Source of the DNA: Sedimentisphaerales bacterium
Lineage (GTDB): Bacteria; Planctomycetota; Phycisphaerae; Sedimentisphaerales; SM23-30
Direction: 5' to 3' (one strand)
Assembly: GCA_963666285.1 (NCBI GenBank)
Contig: OY762711.1
Length of the DNA stretch: 64,000 bases
Positions 39,885 through 50,000 of this stretch are shown in pieces. The notes beneath the pieces are model-generated. The model saw only the letters and a program-made list of their open reading frames with translations, was not told the origin of the DNA and did not search any database. How positions within the stretch are numbered: the stretch's first letter is position 1; every line of letters starts with the position of its first letter. The position numbers and the translations under genes are program-made.

Positions 39885-40646
39885 CTATTGCTGTTCGACA
39901 ATGATGTTAACCGCTTCGTTTTTTCTGATAGATAAATGGTACCCTTTAACCTTAATCTCTATAGGGTCGCCAAGCGGCGCTACTCTCTCAACCTCAATGA
40001 CTGTGCCGCGGCTAATGCCCATTTCGGCCAGTCGTTTTGATGCAGAAGACCCTCTTTTGACTCTTTGGACGATACATTTATTGCCGGGTTTGATGTCCAG
40101 CAGGGTTTGGGGTTCGGTTTCATCGGTCATCTTTGCAATTTCCTTTTTGTGTCTGTTTGCGGTATCCTCAAGGCATGTCTGACAGGATTCCGAGCTGCTG
40201 AGGTGCAGTTTCTGGGTATAGCTTTGGAATCTATCGACCCAGTTTTTGCCGCATTTAGGACATGCCTGGATGAATTCAGAAAATAGTATTATCCGATCGA
40301 TAATCTCGTCCGGGACAGCGTGTTCCATCTCACAAGCTCCTTTTTCGGCAATGTCGGAATTGACGCCCAGTATGTTTTCGAAAAAGTCGCTTAGAGTTTC
40401 GTGTTTTCTGATAATTTCGAGTGCTTTTTCCTGGCCTTCCGGAGTAATGGAGATGAGTTCGTAAGGTGCATAGTTTATAAGTTTCATTTTTGTAAGGGCT
40501 TGTAGAGCGCCGGTGACAGATCCGGCCTTGACGTTAAGCCTGTCAGCGATGTCCTTTGCCCGTGCAGCTCCTTTATCGGCGACTATCAGGTAAATAGTTT
40601 CCAGGTAGTCTTCCAGGCTGGCACTAAGTTGTATGTTTTTAGTCAT
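39885..40646 (-). CDS. DtxR/MntR-family metal-dependent repressor with C-terminal FeoA domain
   Basis: SLEDYLETIY, ACEMEH, C-terminal RLAEMGI...APLGDPIEIKVKGY. Confidence 0.9.
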   Translation of the reverse strand: MTKNIQLSASLEDYLETIYLIVADKGAARAKDIADRLNVKAGSVTGALQALTKMKLINYAPYELISITPEGQEKALEIIRKHETLSDFFENILGVNSDIAEKGACEMEHAVPDEIIDRIILFSEFIQACPKCGKNWVDRFQSYTQKLHLSSSESCQTCLEDTANRHKKEIAKMTDETEPQTLLDIKPGNKCIVQRVKRGSSASKRLAEMGISRGTVIEVERVAPLGDPIEIKVKGYHLSIRKNEAVNIIVEQQ

Positions 40647-40661
40647 GAAAAAGCCTTTCTT

Positions 40662-40694
40662 TTAGTCCTATCTAATTTTATAAGGCCAGCCTAA
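40662..40694. promoter_or_regulatory. Two DtxR/MntR-type boxes upstream of the repressor-feoB operon
   Basis: TTAGTCCTATCTAA (40662-40675) and TAAGGCCAGCCTAA (40681-40694), TTAG-N6-CTAA-like dyads. Confidence 0.6.
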
Positions 40695-40749
40695 CTTTGT
40701 CAATATTTTTTTATTTTTTGGAGGTTTCAAGGGAGAGGTGTTTTTCATA

Positions 40750-42500
40750 TATTTAGCACCAGGCGAAACTTGGAGCAGAGCAGGCATAGCCTGCACCAGA
40801 CCTCAGCAGCCTCGCTGCGTTCGGACCAGACATAGTCTGGACCAGACCTCGCTTTGCTCGGTAACGAATAGAGATTGTCAATTCTAGAGGGCAAATCAGA
40901 ATGATTTGCCGAGGCGTGATACAAATATTCAGTTTTTCAAAGAGCAAAATTTATGTAAAAGACGAAGTATTCGTCGTTGTTAAGTTTTAACGAGAGCAGT
41001 TTTTTTGTCGGTAATCATTTTTATTAGCTCTCTACAATTGGACGGTATGTCGAAAGTGCGCTGATTTTTTTGATGGGATGGTTGGTTTGGAAGTTTGTAA
41101 GGTGTTGTGGATAAGCGGGATAATAATTTTGAAGATTTTAGATTTTCGCGATTTGGTGGATGTAAAAACGAGATGATTTTTTCGAGAAAATCAGGGGCCA
41201 GGGATCAGGTTTCAGATGCCAGGGAAGGTTGCTCGCTACCGCTCGCGGGTAATTGATGGGTAACGGGAGGTGTGCGGAAAGGTAACGGGACAGCGCGGAG
41301 GTGGGACGGCGGTGAAAAGGGGTGCGGATTTGAACGGCGGGGAATTGCGGGCTGCGGACAGTATACGGCGGAACGTTGAATGGGTGCGGCGGTATACGGA
41401 CTGGAACGAAGCGGAGAAGCGACGAGCTACGCTAAATGAAAATGAATAATGAAAAATGAAAAGTTGAGGTGTCCGCTTCGCGGACGGCTTGTTTTAAACG
41501 GCTACGCCGAACGACGGAAGGTCGTTAGAGATTAGAGCAGGTGAGCAGAAGAACAGGCAATCAGCAGCGAGCCAACAGCGGCCAGCGAGCAGCCAAGCTG
41601 CTAGAGATTAGAGCAGATGACAGTGGAACAGGAGGAAGATAAATACGTGCTACGCACTCTGGCACATCATTGGACAAGTCCAATGATGTGAAGGTGTCGC
41701 TACGCAACCTGTTTGAATAATGTGCCGAGCTCCGCCTGAGGCGGATTTCAATCAGCTCAGCGTTCCCAGGAGTGAAGGTGTCGCTACGCGACCTGTTTTA
41801 AACGGGTTCGGCGAAAAGCAGAACCATCAATGAACGCGGATGAACACTGATAAGATGTTGCTAACGCGACGGATGTTTCATGCTCAGTGTTACCAGAGGT
41901 GAAGGAGGGGTTAAAAAACGGAATGAAATTGAAGAGTGCGGGGATATAAGAACGAATGCATGGCGGGTTCAGGGAAGAGTTGCGGCGGGGAGGGGATTTT
42001 GCGGATATTTACGTAAGTTGTTATTTTTGGATTGTGGGCGGACCAGATGCCGCGAAGCGGCATCTGAAGTCTGAAGTTTGAAGTCTGAATTCTGAAAAGA
42101 TGGTGTTCGCCTAGCGGCTCACAACTTATTTTAAAGCTGTTGCATATTTAAATTCAGAATTATGAAAAAGATTGGCAACCACGAAAATTCACGAAAGAAC
42201 ACGAAAAAAAATACTGTTGCTCGCAGAGGACGCAAAGATCGCAAAGAATATTACCTGGCCATGAAGGGAATGCGTTAAATTTAAAATTAAAAATTAAGAA
42301 TTGAGAATTAAAAAGAACTGAAAAATACAAGGCTGCGATAAGTACCAATAATTATAAGATGGCTTGCTTCAGCCTTCGTTAAAGCTATGGTTCGACAAGA
42401 CCGGACGTGATTAATAATTCTGAACCACTGATGCACGCGGATGGACACCGATAAGAAAATGTTTAGATAACTTGACGGTAAATTTTACAACCACGAAAAT
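40750..42500. repeat. Non-coding mosaic of short tandem repeats and hairpins (part 1)
   Basis: No credible ORF; 7-mer and 9-mer tandem runs, recurring AGGTGTC-hairpin-TTTTAAA modules, REP-like palindromes. Confidence 0.75.
42176..42210 (+). repeat. Empty (uninterrupted) IS target repeat
   Basis: CAACCACGA-AAAT-TCACGAAAGAACACGAAAA is the sequence obtained by joining the flanks of either IS copy. Confidence 0.9.
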
Positions 42501-42619
42501 ACAATGAAAGCCAGAATATTCCTGTAGCATGGCTTGTGTTATAATACACAATAATTTTAGCACGAGCTGTCACAGGGACGCTCAAATATTTAACCAATTT
42601 TATACGGAGTATTCTGGCT

Positions 42620-43666
42620 ATGAAGACTATTATGTCAATTGATTTAGGAAAATTCAAGAGTGTAGTTTGTTTTTATGAGGTAAAAAGCTGTAAGGCTATA
42701 TATAAGTCGTTTAAGACTAACCCTCAAGAGCTTCATGACCTGGCAGTATCTCACCCTGCTGATCTTATTGTATTTGAGGCTTGTGATATCATAGGCTGGA
42801 TTTGTGACCTTTTTGACACCCTGGAATTAAAATATGAAGTGGCAAATACTAATACCGGCGAATGGTCTGGCAGAAAATTGAAGAAGAAAACAGATAAAAA
42901 GGATGCATTTTGGCTGGCCAAGCGTGCTGCTTTAGGAGATTTATCAACTGTCTATGTTCCTAAAAAGGAAATTCGAGAGAAACGATCTTTAATTAATTAT
43001 CGCCAGAGCCTTACAGAACGGATAACTCAGGTAAAAAATACTATTCGTTCTTTATTAAATGCCCAGGCGTATTCGTTGCCGTCAGGCAGAAAGTGCTGGT
43101 CTAAGCAGAATCTGGAACAGTTAAGAAGTATGGCTATGCCAATGGATAAAGTTAAACCAGATGAGCTCTGGAAAGGCAATCTATGGAGCGAGCTTATATT
43201 ACTGGAACAATTAACAGACGCTTTGCAAGTAGTTGAAGATAAACTGGAAGAGTTAAATAGTACTGATGAAAAGGTAAAACTATTACAGACTGTTCCCGGA
43301 GTTGGCCCACGTCTGGCAGAGGCAGTTGCAGCTTATATTGATGATCCACATAGATTTAAGAATTGCAAACAAGTTGGCAGCTATATTGGTATGACACCGC
43401 GTCAGTACCAATCAGGTAATACAGACCGTCATGGGCGGATAAGTAAATATGGCAATAGGTTATTGCGAGCATTACTTGTTGAGGTTTGCTGGCTGGGTTT
43501 GCGTTGGAATCCATGGATAAAAGAAACATACGAAAGAATAAAGAGGGGAAGTAAAACTCGTGCAAAAATAGCGATAGTAGCTACAGCCCGACGGTTGTTC
43601 GTACGATTGTGGGCGATGATGCGAGATGGGACAAGTTGGCAGATGCCTGAATTGCAAAGTGTTTGA
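42620..43666 (+). CDS. IS110-family DEDD transposase/recombinase
   Basis: SIDLGK, FEAC, KTDKKDA (DEDD); TVPGVG; QYQSG; GRISKYGNRLLR. Confidence 0.95.
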   Translation: MKTIMSIDLGKFKSVVCFYEVKSCKAIYKSFKTNPQELHDLAVSHPADLIVFEACDIIGWICDLFDTLELKYEVANTNTGEWSGRKLKKKTDKKDAFWLAKRAALGDLSTVYVPKKEIREKRSLINYRQSLTERITQVKNTIRSLLNAQAYSLPSGRKCWSKQNLEQLRSMAMPMDKVKPDELWKGNLWSELILLEQLTDALQVVEDKLEELNSTDEKVKLLQTVPGVGPRLAEAVAAYIDDPHRFKNCKQVGSYIGMTPRQYQSGNTDRHGRISKYGNRLLRALLVEVCWLGLRWNPWIKETYERIKRGSKTRAKIAIVATARRLFVRLWAMMRDGTSWQMPELQSV

Positions 43667-43699
43667 TACCAATATAAGTAAAATATAAATATTACCTAT

Positions 43700-43900
43700 G
43701 ATTTTGCCCGATTGAAATCGATACGGAACCTTGGTCGTGCATTTGGGTTTTGAACCTGACACGAAAATTAAGCCGTATCGCAATATATATAATGGAACCA
43801 TGGCGTAAAATACAGCCTCGGACACTCCGGATAGAAAGATGAAACAATCAGGTAAATAATGATTCGCTACGCGAAAATTGTTTTAAATAGGTTTATCGCA
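43700..43900 (+). ncRNA. Candidate bridge/seekRNA of IS copy 1 (boundaries approximate)
   Basis: Stem CGATACGG/CCGTATCG closes an internal loop holding TCGTGCATTT (complement of right target) and CACGAAAATT (left target). Confidence 0.75.
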
Positions 43901-44069
43901 TAAGGTCAAAAAGCAAAAAACGAGGCGGTGTAAAACCGCCCCGGCTTCTTGACAACTTGCAACGCTCGGGTTGCTCCTCAGCAGAGCCCTATCCTTTGCA
44001 AGATAAAGGAATTATAGCAAAAATGAATAAAATTAGAAAATTAATGTTGCATTCTGGCTTCATAGAAAT

Positions 44070-44544
44070 TCACGAAAGAACACGAAAAAAAATACTGTTG
44101 CTCGCAGAGGCCGCAAGGTTCGCAAAGTATCATTTCAAATATGGCACTGACCGACACGGGCAGGCACAGGCAAACACGGTAGGCAGCAATCAGCAATCAG
44201 CAATCAGCTACGAGCGGCGAGCGAACAGTGAAGAGGAAATACGTGCTGCGCACTCTGGCACATCATTGGACAAGTCCAATGATGTGAAGGTGTCGCCTGG
44301 CGGCGAGGATGATTAAAAAATAATGGGGAGGCTTGTTTATTCACCCGGTTGAAACCGGGGGCTACCAAAAATTAGCAGTCAGCGGCGAGCGATGCTAAGT
44401 GAAAAATGAATAATGAAAAGTGAAAAGTTGAGGTGTCCTGATATACGTTGACATCAGGAATAATTCGCTGTCGCTCACGACTTATTTTTAAGCTGTCGCA
44501 TATTTAAATTCAGAATTATGAAAAAGATTGTCAACCACGAAAAT
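44070..44544. repeat. Repeat mosaic between the IS copies (part 2)
   Basis: Re-uses modules from 41430-41700 and 42125-42260; CAATCAG tandem run; GTAG-type hairpin at 44342-44367. Confidence 0.75.
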
Positions 44545-44663
44545 ACAATGAAAGCCAGAATATTCCTGTAGCATGGCTTGTGTTATAATACACAATAATT
44601 TTAGCACGAGCTGTCACAGGGACGCTCAAATATTTAACCAATTTTATACGGAGTATTCTGGCT

Positions 44664-45710
44664 ATGAAGACTATTATGTCAATTGATTTAGGAAAATTCA
44701 AGAGTGTAGTTTGTTTTTATGAGGTAAAAAGCTGTAAGGCTATATATAAGTCGTTTAAGACTAACCCTCAAGAGCTTCATGACCTGGCAGTATCTCACCC
44801 TGCTGATCTTATTGTATTTGAGGCTTGTGATATCATAGGCTGGATTTGTGACCTTTTTGACACCCTGGAATTAAAATATGAAGTGGCAAATACTAATACC
44901 GGCGAATGGTCTGGCAGAAAATTGAAGAAGAAAACAGATAAAAAGGATGCATTTTGGCTGGCCAAGCGTGCTGCTTTAGGAGATTTATCAACTGTCTATG
45001 TTCCTAAAAAGGAAATTCGAGAGAAACGATCTTTAATTAATTATCGCCAGAGCCTTACAGAACGGATAACTCAGGTAAAAAATACTATTCGTTCTTTATT
45101 AAATGCCCAGGCGTATTCGTTGCCGTCAGGCAGAAAGTGCTGGTCTAAGCAGAATCTGGAACAGTTAAGAAGTATGGCTATGCCAATGGATAAAGTTAAA
45201 CCAGATGAGCTCTGGAAAGGCAATCTATGGAGCGAGCTTATATTACTGGAACAATTAACAGACGCTTTGCAAGTAGTTGAAGATAAACTGGAAGAGTTAA
45301 ATAGTACTGATGAAAAGGTAAAACTATTACAGACTGTTCCCGGAGTTGGCCCACGTCTGGCAGAGGCAGTTGCAGCTTATATTGATGATCCACATAGATT
45401 TAAGAATTGCAAACAAGTTGGCAGCTATATTGGTATGACACCGCGTCAGTACCAATCAGGTAATACAGACCGTCATGGGCGGATAAGTAAATATGGCAAT
45501 AGGTTATTGCGAGCATTACTTGTTGAGGTTTGCTGGCTGGGTTTGCGTTGGAATCCATGGATAAAAGAAACATACGAAAGAATAAAGAGGGGAAGTAAAA
45601 CTCGTGCAAAAATAGCGATAGTAGCTACAGCCCGACGGTTGTTCGTACGATTGTGGGCGATGATGCGAGATGGGACAAGTTGGCAGATGCCTGAATTGCA
45701 AAGTGTTTGA
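44664..45710 (+). CDS. IS110-family DEDD transposase/recombinase
   Basis: Protein identical to 42620..43666. Confidence 0.95.
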   Translation: MKTIMSIDLGKFKSVVCFYEVKSCKAIYKSFKTNPQELHDLAVSHPADLIVFEACDIIGWICDLFDTLELKYEVANTNTGEWSGRKLKKKTDKKDAFWLAKRAALGDLSTVYVPKKEIREKRSLINYRQSLTERITQVKNTIRSLLNAQAYSLPSGRKCWSKQNLEQLRSMAMPMDKVKPDELWKGNLWSELILLEQLTDALQVVEDKLEELNSTDEKVKLLQTVPGVGPRLAEAVAAYIDDPHRFKNCKQVGSYIGMTPRQYQSGNTDRHGRISKYGNRLLRALLVEVCWLGLRWNPWIKETYERIKRGSKTRAKIAIVATARRLFVRLWAMMRDGTSWQMPELQSV

Positions 45711-45743
45711 TACCAATATAAGTAAAATATAAATATTACCTAT

Positions 45744-45944
45744 GATTTTGCCCGATTGAAATCGATACGGAACCTTGGTCGTGCATTTGGGTTTTGAACC
45801 TGACACGAAAATTAAGCCGTATCGCAATATATATAATGGAACCATGGCGTAAAATACAGCCTCGGACACTCCGGATAGAAAGATGAAACAATCAGGTAAA
45901 TAATGATTCGCTACGCGAAAATTGTTTTAAATAGGTTTATCGCA
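45744..45944 (+). ncRNA. Candidate bridge/seekRNA of IS copy 2 (boundaries approximate)
   Basis: Same sequence as 43700-43900. Confidence 0.75.
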
Positions 45945-46113
45945 TAAGGTCAAAAAGCAAAAAACGAGGCGGTGTAAAACCGCCCCGGCTTCTTGACAAC
46001 TTGCAACGCTCGGGTTGCTCCTCAGCAGAGCCCTATCCTTTGCAAGATAAAGGAATTATAGCAAAAATGAATAAAATTAGAAAATTAATGTTGCATTCTG
46101 GCTTCATAGAAAT

Positions 46114-46700
46114 TCACGAAAGAACACGAAAAAAAACTGTTGCTCGCAGAGGCCGCAAAGATCGCAAAGAATATTACTTGATCATGAAGGGAGTGGAGTT
46201 AATGAAGGAGAATAGAAGAGCGAAGCATTGCTAAGTGAAAAGTTATTAAGGTGGCCGCCTATCCTTCGACTAGCTCAGGACAGGTCGGTTCACGACTTGT
46301 TTTAAAGCTGTTGCTACGGATTGTAGAAAAAACGGATTGTGGTAAGTTGGGGAAATGGAATTTTGACTGTAACTAATGAGTGGGGTTGCGGTATAAGAGT
46401 GTGTGGTGTGAGTGAAGATGACATCAGGAATAATTTGCTTTCGCGAACTATTTTAAAGCTCCGCAAACACAGAATCTGACGCAAATAACGCACCTGTGAA
46501 TGCTTACAAGAATGAAATGAGATGGAAGCGATTGGCAGGTGGGCAGCTAAAGGCAACGGCTGTCAGCGGACAGCAAGCAGGATGGGATGTTAATTCCACA
46601 TTGTGCTGCGCACTTCGGCACTTTTCAGGCGGAGCTGAAAAGTGGAGGTATTGCCTGGCGGCGAGGCTTGTTACAAATGATGAGAATATCGGGATGGTTT
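46114..46700. repeat. Repeat mosaic (part 3)
   Basis: Right half of the target unit, then further AGGT-hairpin-TTTTAAA-type modules (46249-46306, 46420-46456, 46646-46678). Confidence 0.7.
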
Positions 46701-47075
46701 AGGAGATTTTCCGGTGTGAGTTTGTGTTGAGGGGCTGGTGCGAGTGTTGGTGTTGTTGGGGTGTTGTAAGTGGTTGTATTATAGTGGTTTATGTTGTGGT
46801 GGTTTCGTGTTGGAAATGAAGGCAATGTTTTTTGAATTGCGGCGTCAATTTTGATGGTAAGTGTTTGGGGAATTGGCGTTTATTTGGTATAATACTATTG
46901 TTTTGAGATTGATTTTGTCTTTTGGCCGGGAAAGAACAGTTTTTTCTCCCGGAAGTTAAGTTTTTTAATAATTGCAGTAGAGTTAAGTCTTGTTTTGAAA
47001 AGAAGTTAGAGGATGAAAAACTGAACGGGTGAACAGTTGAGCAGAAGAAAGAAATATGAGTCTGGAGTCATAAAA

Positions 47076-50000
47076 ATGAAAAATATAATAACTTGTGTGT
47101 TAATTGTATTGTTATGGATGTCAACATTTGCATTTGGTGTGGGTGGAGTTTTGCCTGGGAGTGGGACAGTGAGTGATCCGTATTTGATAGAGGATCTGGC
47201 GGATTTTGATGTGTTTGCGGATGAGGCTAATGCCGGGACGTATTGGGCGAGCGGTGTGTATGCGAAACTGGTGTGTGATATAGATTTGAATGGTCGTGTA
47301 TATGATAGAGCTGTTATTGCATGGGATACAGATGATACAAATGGTGTTAATTTTGATGGAGCAGATTATTCAGGGATCTTTGAAGGTAATAATCACATAA
47401 TAAGTAATATTTCGCTAGAGACTTATTATTACGCAGGGCTTTTTGGTCGGTTAAATAATGGTTCAATTTTAAATCTAGGTGTCGAAAATATAAACATTAC
47501 AAGTTCCAATGGATATAGTGAATATGTTGGTGGTTTGGTCAGCTGTAGTATAAGCAGCTTAATCAATAATTGTTACACAATAGCAACAATTGAGACGGGT
47601 GGTTCTATGGTTGGCGGACTGGCAGGTTGTAATGGGTATGGCAGTACAATTGAAAAATGTTATAGCAATGCAACGGTTTCCGGATACCAATTAATTGGTG
47701 GTTTAGTCGGACTCAATAAAAGTAGTGGTACAATAAACGAAAGTTATGCTATTGGTTATATATCTGGCAGCAGGCTTGTAGGTGGTCTGGCGGGAAGGAA
47801 TTACGGTGGGTCAATATATTGGAGTAATGCATCAAGTACAGTTTCCTGTGATAATGAGATGGTTGGCGGTTTAGCAGGAGGTTCTTCTACTGGTTCCATA
47901 ATTTCTAATTGTTACTCAACGGGTACTATTACTGGAGATGCATATAAGGCCGGAGGCTTGATTGGTGATCTGGAATATGGACAATTATTGAGTTGTTATT
48001 CGCATTGTAGTGTATCAGGATCAAATTCAGTTGGAGGTCTTATTGGATCAGCAAAAGTATTAGATGTGGAATATTGCTATTCAACTGGAGTAGTGTCTGG
48101 AAGCCGATACCCTGGCGGTTTTATGGGATACTTATATTCCGGAAGCTCAGGTATAAAATCATGTTTCTGGGATGTTGACAGTTCTGGTATGACGAACGGA
48201 TTTAGCAGTTATAATATTGGAACGATTTCAGAACTGCAAGGGCTGAATACAGGTGAGATGCAAACTCGATCTACTTTTACTGATGCAGGATGGGACTTTA
48301 TTGATGAGAGCAGCAATGGTACTGATGACTTTTGGTCAATGAAATTATATCCAATATTAAGTATTAATACTGATGGATTTATTTCTATTCCTGACATAAC
48401 AAGCTTACCCCAGATTGATGCAGAAGCGTTAATAATAAGTTCAGGTTTTGTGCCAGGCAATATTAGTTATGATTATAACAGCATAATTCCTGAAGGAAAT
48501 GTAATTAGTCAATTTCCTTTAGCAGGTAAAATGAGGGTGTCAGGCGCCTACATTAATTATACTTTATCATTGGGAGTTTATCCTATTACTGGTTTGGGTA
48601 CAAAAGAATCCCCATATATTATTTCTGATTTTGAAGGTTTTAATATTTTCTGTGATCCGGAAAATGCAGTGAAATACTGGGAGGAGGGAGTTTATACTAG
48701 ATTAGACAATGATATTGACCTGGATCCAGTTTTACCTGACAGGCAGTTGTATACTATGGCACCAATATCACCAGATAGTGCTGGTTCAGGATATCAGGGA
48801 AAAGAATTCAGTGGAGTGTTTGACGGAAGTGGTAAAATAGTAAGTAACCTTACTATCGATGGATCATACTATTGTGGTATGTTTGGTAGAATAGGAACCA
48901 GCGGTTCAGTTATTAACCTCGGTTTGGAAAATGTTTCTGTTACCGGTTCATTTGATAATATTAGCGGACTTGCGGGAGAAAGTTCCGGCAATGTCAGCAA
49001 TTGCTACATTACCGGCATTGTTAGCGGGAGAGACGCTGTTGGCGGGCTTGTTGCAGAAAATAATAGAGGTAGTATTGATAATTGTTACAGCACATGCTCT
49101 GTGACAGGCGATTATGAAATTGGTGGTCTAGTTGGATCTAATTATTTTGGCAGTATTAGTAATTGTTACAGCATTGGTATTGTAGACGGGAATTTACTTG
49201 AGGGCGGACTGGTCGGAAGCGATCTTTCAGGTATCATTAGTAATTGTTATTTATATATTTATTGTGGTTTGAATAATGGACATGGTATTCCACTGGATGA
49301 TACTGGATTAGAGACAAAATCCAGTTTTTCCGGATTTGACTTTACCGGCGATAATGCTGATGGTTCTGGGGATTACTGGGCTATTGAGCCTGGTTATATG
49401 CCAAGACTTGTTTGGCAGGAATCTCCCGGTTTTAATGCGCCATATTTAATTGACAATATTACTACCAGCTTACTAGGCAGCGGTTATTCTGATGACCCTT
49501 TTATAATAGATAGTTATAGTGATCTAATGATATTTAAGAGCGACTCATCTCTGCGAATCGGCTACTACAGCTTAACAACTGATATAGATTTGTCAGGCAT
49601 AACATATACAGAAGCGTTTATACCGGATGATTTTTTCGGAATATTCCAGGGTAATGGTCATCGTATCTCCAACTTAACGATTGATAGTGATTCTAACCTG
49701 GGTTTGTTTGGTAGACTTAATGGTACAGTAGACAATCTAATCCTTGATGACATATCGATAAACGGCACAGGTTCTTATGTCGGTGGGGCAGCAGGAAACA
49801 ATTATTATGGCATTATCAGTAATTGCTATGTTACGGGCAGTATAGTTGGTTTGGGTAACTATGTTGGCGGACTGGCTGGGCGTAGTTATGGTAACATCAG
49901 CAATTGTTGCAACGAAAGTAATATTAGCGGCTCTTATCAAAGCACTGGTGGTTTAACGGGGGATAATTCTGGCAGAGTCATGAAAAGTTACAGTACCGGC

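Follow-up and report, generated by a model that had tools for sequence, protein, structure and literature searches.

Downstream of the transposase gene of an insertion sequence in a Sedimentisphaerales bacterium lies a non-coding region whose letters resemble both sides of the element's own insertion site. This raises the question of whether the region encodes an RNA guide, and whether guide, core and target can be read together from the DNA. Coordinates below refer to the window, the 64,000-nucleotide stretch of contig OY762711.1 that was analyzed. An earlier note on this DNA had proposed such a guide, with a 4-nt AAAT core. Here, we find that the non-coding region matches both halves of the site and both ends of the element, and very probably encodes a bridge/seek RNA that would guide the recombinase to a 14-bp site composed of 5 nt, the core AA, and 7 nt.

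The Element and Its Transposase

The element is intact, spans 1,570 bp (42497-44066, plus strand), belongs to the IS1111 type of the IS110 family, and occurs in nine full copies in the genome. The copies are 99.0-100% alike, with zero differences among them within 43707-43949, and the second copy in the window (44541-46110, plus strand) is identical to the first at an offset of 2,044 nt. The 14-nt left subterminal inverted repeat (42504-42517) and the 13-nt right repeat (44051-44063) match at 13 of 13 positions with one gap; IS1111 repeats are usually near-perfect and 11-13 bp long. Outside the repeats are a 7-bp left extension (42497-42503) and a 3-bp right extension (44064-44066) without target duplication, in a register inferred from relatives and with the core counted on the left, in keeping with the published rule for IS1111 ends, 7 bp plus 3 bp outside the repeats (PMC11187229). 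The gene is followed by 397 nt of non-coding DNA and preceded by 119 nt. All nine copies share the left 5-mer and the core, which corresponds to one target used in one orientation.

The gene (42620-43666, plus strand) encodes a DEDD recombinase/transposase of 348 amino acids, within the 330-350 of IS1111 transposases, and carries GMTPRQYQSG, which fits their G(L)-P-x4-(S/T)G motif. In a profile search the protein exceeds the cut-offs for PF01548 and PF02371, and it scores 213.5 bits against NF033542 (cut-off 140). D8, E53, D92, D95, and S265 are invariant in 37 of 37 aligned homologues, as expected for the DEDD RuvC-like domain and the C-terminal PF02371 domain with catalytic serine that define the IS110 family in the broad sense. 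The nearest proteins with a source name come from Sedimentisphaerales (73%), and identity to the IS5075 transposase is about 24% over 82% of the length. The profile match to the solved IS621 protein has an E value of 1.3e-21; no IS1111-group protein came up in this search of solved structures. The narrow-sense IS110 group (IS621, ISEc21) has an upstream RNA, a bottom-strand match first, and no long inverted repeats, and all three features are opposite here. Every IS1111 feature that can be tested in sequence is present in this element, which is a further example of the guide-RNA system published in 2024 and not a new system. Such elements number in the thousands (similar recombinases form 2,792 protein clusters at E <= 1e-30), and this is one more putative RNA-guided recombinase whose guide can be read; it brings an AA core and nine intact copies, from a branch in which we found no tested member.

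A Predicted Target-Binding Stem-Loop

The predicted target-binding stem-loop occupies 43719-43780 on the plus strand, and its stem, arms, and hairpin lie 45-118 nt past the transposase stop codon. The outer stem (43719-26 with 43773-80), the 5′ arm (43735-44), the hairpin (43745-57), and the 3′ arm (43760-69) are where the earlier note had placed them, and its assignment of the element to the IS1111 type, with a downstream guide RNA, a target-binding loop, and a top-strand match ahead of a bottom-strand match, is supported by sequence comparison. The inner helix that closes the loop (43730-33 with 43769-72) had been missed, and the capping hairpin is 43744-43758. T43744 and T43769, previously counted as guide letters, belong to the scaffold instead, as U-G in 24 of 26 and G-U in 26 of 26 related sequences. 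Read in reverse complement, the ten-letter 5′ arm agrees with the right junction, as claimed, at 9 of 10 letters; the claimed identity of the 3′ arm with the left junction extends over 9 nt. On the plus strand, we read the 5′ guide arm as 43735-43743 (7 nt of right target and 2 nt of core, complementary to the top strand; 8 of 9, with the mismatch at 43740) and the 3′ guide arm as 43760-43766 (5 nt of left target and the 2-nt core, identical to the top strand, so that it would pair with the bottom strand; 7 of 7). The top-strand match at 43735-43 precedes the bottom-strand match at 43760-66, which is the IS1111 order. In 20,000 dinucleotide shuffles of the non-coding region, with either strand and any spacing allowed, the left match recurred 150 times, the right match 1,067 times, and both together 12 times, so the double match exceeds chance. 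An Rfam search of 40500-47100 gave no match at E <= 1.

The earlier note described an internal loop here. Because the target has CACGA in direct repeat, one arm is complementary to the other, and the single-sequence fold (-23.1 kcal/mol, z -2.26, with 3 of 200 shuffles doing as well) closes this loop by pairing TCGTG with CACGA; in a second fold run the closed form (-22.5 kcal/mol) is 9.4 kcal/mol lower than the form with the arms forced open (-13.1 kcal/mol). The consensus fold of 26 sequences (this element and 25 of the main clade, picked from 40 candidates) instead leaves the loop open, each arm 10 nt long, with 43730-33/43769-72 as the closing helix and the hairpin 43744-43758 as the cap. 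The scaffold helices are paired in 96.6% of 208 cells, a value that 0 of 500 shuffles attained and that compares with 11-51% in slid controls, and the arms are unpaired. Since the arms are complementary, their matches are not independent in this element, and the case therefore needs relatives.

Covariation of Guides and Flanks in Relatives

We gathered 146 loci with a transposase match, including five of other families in this genome; a scan of the genome collection with the single protein returned only two distant loci. Loci were set aside when they had no end pair (29), were removed by hand (32, of which 19 were repeat fetches, near-duplicates, or further copies and 13 had wrongly called ends), lacked the anchor motif (4), or had short flanks or missing anchors (17). 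The final set holds 64 rows and 52 distinct guide pairs, 51 from relatives plus this element, with guide positions fixed by the scaffold only.

The arms covary with their targets in these homologues, as the earlier note had expected of a guide, with matches above the permuted level for both arms across the 52 guide pairs. The 3′ arm matches its own left flank at 4.73 of 6 positions (permuted, 2.31), and the 5′ arm matches its own right flank at 3.88 of 7 in a fixed register (permuted, 1.98) and at 5.77 of 7 in the best of three registers (permuted, 3.10). Each value was reached in 0 of 10,000 permutations, counts that overstate the case, the relatives being kin and not independent; the signal holds within one clade of 30. 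Swapping the order of the arms leaves little or no signal (369 and 4,815 of 10,000 permutations). The match extends over five positions on the left, each at 44-49 of 51, and drops to 9 and 14 beyond them; on the right it extends over seven, each at 18-20 of 20, and drops to 1. A marine contig (run X5, aligned to window 43466-43856) that resembles the element at about 92% differs from it within 43671-43808 at four listed positions, 43735, 43741, 43763, and 43764, all of them in the arms (one contig, 5 of its 32 differences unlisted), and this relative looks naturally reprogrammed. Guidance by the arms is well supported through these comparisons.

Short direct repeats serve as the target elsewhere in the set too: in 18 of 52 guide pairs the left 5-mer recurs 8-10 nt later, which makes self-pairing arms a recurring trait of this branch. 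Arms able to form at least 5 bp with each other occur in 12 of 52 guide pairs.

A Predicted Donor-Binding Region Follows the Target Loop

A predicted donor-binding region (43786-43838), absent from the earlier account, follows the target loop. Its left-donor guide (43831-43837, plus strand) is identical to the right end of the element plus the core at 7 of 7 positions, and 43838 is a handshake-like position. The candidate right-donor guide (43786-43790, plus strand) fits the left end of the element outside the inverted repeat, that is, the right donor half (42499-42503, plus strand), at 4 of 5 positions; it was placed by alignment with relatives and is not unique alone, as seven other places in the region match equally well. 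Across the 52 guide pairs, the left-donor guide matches the right end at 4.77 of 5 positions (permuted, 3.83) and the right-donor guide matches the left end at 3.31 of 4 (permuted, 2.62; covarying between subfamilies only), both with 0 of 10,000 permutations as high, counts that kinship again inflates. Separate putative donor guides that covary with the ends, a hallmark of IS621-type bridge RNAs, are found here, and multi-loop donor guides have been described for IS1111 elements in the text of Durrant et al. (PMC11208160).

The handshake-like dinucleotide AT at 43767-43768 (plus strand) in the target loop equals the first two letters of the left end of the element, and across the set the 3′-arm letters at the two positions past the core match the donor left end in 50 and 51 of 52 guide pairs and the target in 13 and 6, although they are nearly invariant. 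After the left-donor guide, the first letter past the core equals the target letter in 31 of 52 (permuted 31%, about 16), and in 19 of 30 within one clade (42% permuted; 22 of 10,000 permutations); the second letter follows the target weakly. In this element 43838 is a mismatch to its commonest target. For IS621, the bridge RNA literature reports covariation at the equivalent first position of each loop.

Target Site, Core, and Register

At copy 1, the left target half is 42492-42496 (5 nt), the core AA at the left junction is 42497-42498, where 43 of 52 guide pairs have AG, and the core AA (44067-68) with the 7-nt right target half is 44067-44075, all on the plus strand. Junctions of the relatives read left flank, 2-nt core, 5 nt, and inverted repeat at one end and inverted repeat, 3 nt, core, and right flank at the other. 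The left flank is the same in all nine copies. On the right, the flank begins with three A's before TTCACGA in five copies and with one more A in two, and the remaining two copies diverge further. The target repeat also occurs empty, with four A's at five sites, one of which lies in the window (42180-42194, plus strand) and exceeds the site of copy 1 by one letter, and with three A's at four sites. With a 2-nt core, five copies, among them those in the window, sit in CACGA-AA-TTCACGA, which fits the guide at 13 of 14 positions, two sit in sites with two mismatches, and the two with an extra A sit in the four-A allele with no mutation needed; seven of the nine rebuilt sites are within 2 letters of the guide and two are one letter longer. 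Joining the ends in silico under this core brings a -35-like hexamer (44047-44052, plus strand) to 17 bp from a -10-like hexamer (42500-42505) that overlaps the right donor half. A promoter scan of the linear element was uninformative (7 sites versus 4.9 expected). The circle junction was not seen in contigs of seven sequencing runs, a form of data from which rare forms are dropped, and the two skip joints found in them are explained by empty paralogous sites.

The natural sites belong to a host repeat, CACGA twice 9 nt apart, that is one position off the guide yet is used, as is the allele one letter longer. Position 43740, the one mismatch of the guide, lies opposite the second letter past the core. 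From this mismatch the earlier note had predicted a well-targeted variant with four A's, which is one A too many, as the register of the relatives reads three. The perfectly guide-matched site is absent from this genome in three-A and four-A form alike; that the three-A form should be a good target follows from the preference of IS621 for perfect guide-target matches, as reported in the bridge RNA literature. The corrected register is the more useful product, because a reprogramming designed on a 4-nt core would shift the guide by one letter. The register is loose on the right-hand side: in the fixed register 20 of 51 relatives reach at least 5 of 7, while 14 do so one letter further, 5 one letter nearer, and 2 two letters further, and two of the nine copies of this element are one letter off. 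We considered four-A alleles as escape variants and dropped the idea, as 5 of 9 three-A and 2 of 7 four-A sites are filled, which is too few to tell.

Left cores are more uniform than right cores across the relatives, and two readings of the crossover point within the core fit. In one subfamily (loci L082, L086, L090, L099, L079, L088, L089, L101, L105, L106, and L144) a left core of AG is consistently paired with a right core of CG or CA, which should be useful for fixing the crossover point.

Alternative Readings

The register of the earlier note, with a 4-nt AAAT core, a three-A circle junction, a four-A true target, and a four-A variant with G predicted from the guide mismatch, has some points in its favor: AAAT stands on both sides of six of the nine copies, there are five exact four-A empty sites, one of them in the window, the 3′ arm equals the four-A site over 10 nt, and a crossover inside an A run is unreadable from one copy. 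We nevertheless consider it quite improbable. Relatives with the same scaffold place the core at 2 nt, and one of the nine copies has A and not T at the fourth place on the right. For the two extra-A copies the site would have to hold five A's, and no such site exists in the genome; the extra A is also present in short-read contigs of one run. The ends would have 9 bp between the inverted repeats and a 16-bp promoter spacer in place of 7 + 3 and 17, and one rebuilt site would be one letter too long relative to its empty paralogue, with which it is collinear only under the 2-nt core. Finally, the marine relative changes 43741, and 43768 is not listed as changed, though both would face the same core letter. 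The 2-nt core is supported by the 7 + 3 end rule, the 17-bp spacer, the three-A and four-A empty alleles, and the collinear rebuilt site, and we infer that the core is AA, that the element is 42497-44066, and that the apparent AAAT duplication is a coincidence of the A run.

Two further explanations concern guidance itself. That the structure is an ordinary hairpin, in which one flank matched by chance and the second arm followed through arm complementarity, would suit the lowest-energy fold with its paired arms and the direct repeat in the target; it is highly improbable, since the consensus fold leaves both arms open and the signal persists in the 40 guide pairs with arm-to-arm pairing limited to 4 bp (4.67 of 6 versus 2.15; 5.67 of 7 versus 3.06). 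A less remote reading, though still an unlikely one, gives the guiding role to the target loop alone, as a short seekRNA, with the ends recognized by the protein through the inverted repeats and the donor-like matches in an accessory role. An 82-nt seekRNA was reported to be enough for ISEc11 movement (PMC11187229), so this element may not need its donor loop; an RNA with the target loop only is reported to have supported one junction of another IS110 element (bioRxiv 10.1101/2025.10.25.684509), and the right-donor guide is weak here. Against this, the left-donor guide changes together with the right end from relative to relative, and the letter beside it tracks the target, which implies selection on the donor loop.

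A Proposed Mechanism and Its Relation to IS621

The element would circularize, joining the -35-like and -10-like hexamers at a 17-bp spacing, and transcription of both transposase and RNA would start from the promoter so formed. At the target, top-strand pairing with core and right half would fall to the 5′ arm (43735-43) and bottom-strand pairing with left half and core to the 3′ arm (43760-66), while the guides at 43786-90 and 43831-37 would hold the circle junction; the sequence matches are as given above. The protein is predicted to have to open the arms, which are paired with each other in the naked RNA. If the model of IS621 holds, cleavage and strand exchange would take place at the 2-nt core in a recombinase tetramer, and the handshake letters, which would match the partner DNA only after exchange, may help strand exchange.

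The guide match lengths found here, 5 on the left and 7 on the right, equal the IS621 guide lengths on the other strand. We lean toward the view that the IS1111 loop is the IS621 loop read on the other strand, with a 9-nt 5′ arm, a 7-nt 3′ arm, two handshake letters, a 14-bp site, and a second loop with its own handshake letter, so that the "reversed order" of guides said to set IS1111 apart from IS110 elements would be no different mechanism. From this geometry, mirrored relative to IS621, we predict exchange of the bottom strand before the top strand. If this reading is true, cleavage and exchange by IS1111 recombinases would begin with the bottom strand, the 7-bp left extension would consist of the core and a 5-nt donor half, and IS621 design rules would carry over by a strand flip. 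The seekRNA paper, in the text available, leaves open whether both families work alike (PMC11187229), and the strand-flip reading offers a cheap test of this point. A strand-flip or handshake reading of IS1111 was not found in the literature text searched, although supplementary material or figures such as Durrant Extended Data Fig. 10c and Siddiquee Fig. 3 may show one. IS5075 fits the handshake reading at one of its loops only: in its target loop, the letter that directly follows the core matches the target and not the donor, which counts against the reading there. No 5′ arm match was found in the Acaryochloris element (best 6 of 9, at five places).

Comparison with Known Systems

As described in the available text on ISEc11, ISKpn4, ISPa11, and ISPst6 (Siddiquee et al. 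2024, PMC11187229), those elements share with this one a DEDD transposase of 330-350 amino acids, subterminal inverted repeats, extensions of 7 bp on the left and 3 bp on the right, a long downstream non-coding region, a top-strand match that precedes the bottom-strand one, insertion into one target in one orientation, and a promoter motif at the junction. Unlike them, the present element belongs to a divergent branch, targets a host repeat with a 9-nt period, and has a non-coding region of about 400 nt and arms that can pair with each other. IS5075 (plasmid NZ_ON169979.1) is alike in its 7 + 3 ends, inverted repeats that start with ATG, a 5′ arm of 7 + 2 nt, four guides in the same order (9/9, 6/7, 5/5, and 7/7), and the same motif around the left-donor guide; it differs in its target, in a protein of about 24% identity, and in a first handshake-like letter of the target loop without donor match. 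IS621, as presented in the text of Durrant et al. 2024 (PMC11208160), Hiraizumi et al. 2024 (PMC11208158), and the 2026 excision structures (PMC13626964), likewise has two guide loops, a 2-nt core, a 14-position target, a 9-nt 5′ arm, a 3′ arm of up to 7 nt with two handshake letters, and the catalytic DEDD and serine. Its RNA, however, is encoded upstream of its gene, with a 5′ arm for the left target; in the present element the predicted RNA maps downstream, and its loop has that geometry on the opposite strand. The core of IS621 is CT, and the present element has an AA core, donor guides in a multi-branch region, and long inverted repeats.

Genomic Setting and Further Observations

The element lies in about 6 kb (40950-47000) without host genes of at least 80 amino acids, made up of repeated non-coding blocks (families D2-D10) and runs with a 7-nt period. 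The target repeat recurs in similar blocks at several other places in the genome. The idea that target repeats flank GxxExxY genes was dropped: the genome has no PF13366 match, and a motif screen raised 4 weak flags among 279 open frames beside relatives' junctions. Genes of the PF05635 four-helix-bundle family gave 10 matches in the genome, none at target-repeat arrays.

Downstream of the predicted RNA, a GC-rich hairpin (43921-43943) scores as a minus-strand terminator. A 33-nt motif in the distal non-coding region (43963-43995) recurs at varying places in eight loci of relatives; this genome also has it at two sites outside IS elements, and it occurs in many unrelated contigs, so it may be a small element or RNA in its own right. 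Among the relatives' loci, a short partial duplication of the element's left end and flank (L005:1300-1500, G145) directly precedes one copy, resembling what a one-ended insertion might leave.

The genome also holds a second IS1111-type family of four copies (G000 C1 at 2394698, 1590836, 5026811, and 5746294), with 34% protein identity and the same RNA scaffold, which sits in a sister repeat with CACGA twice, 10 nt apart. A third IS1111-type family has three partial matches, and there is one further match on C4.
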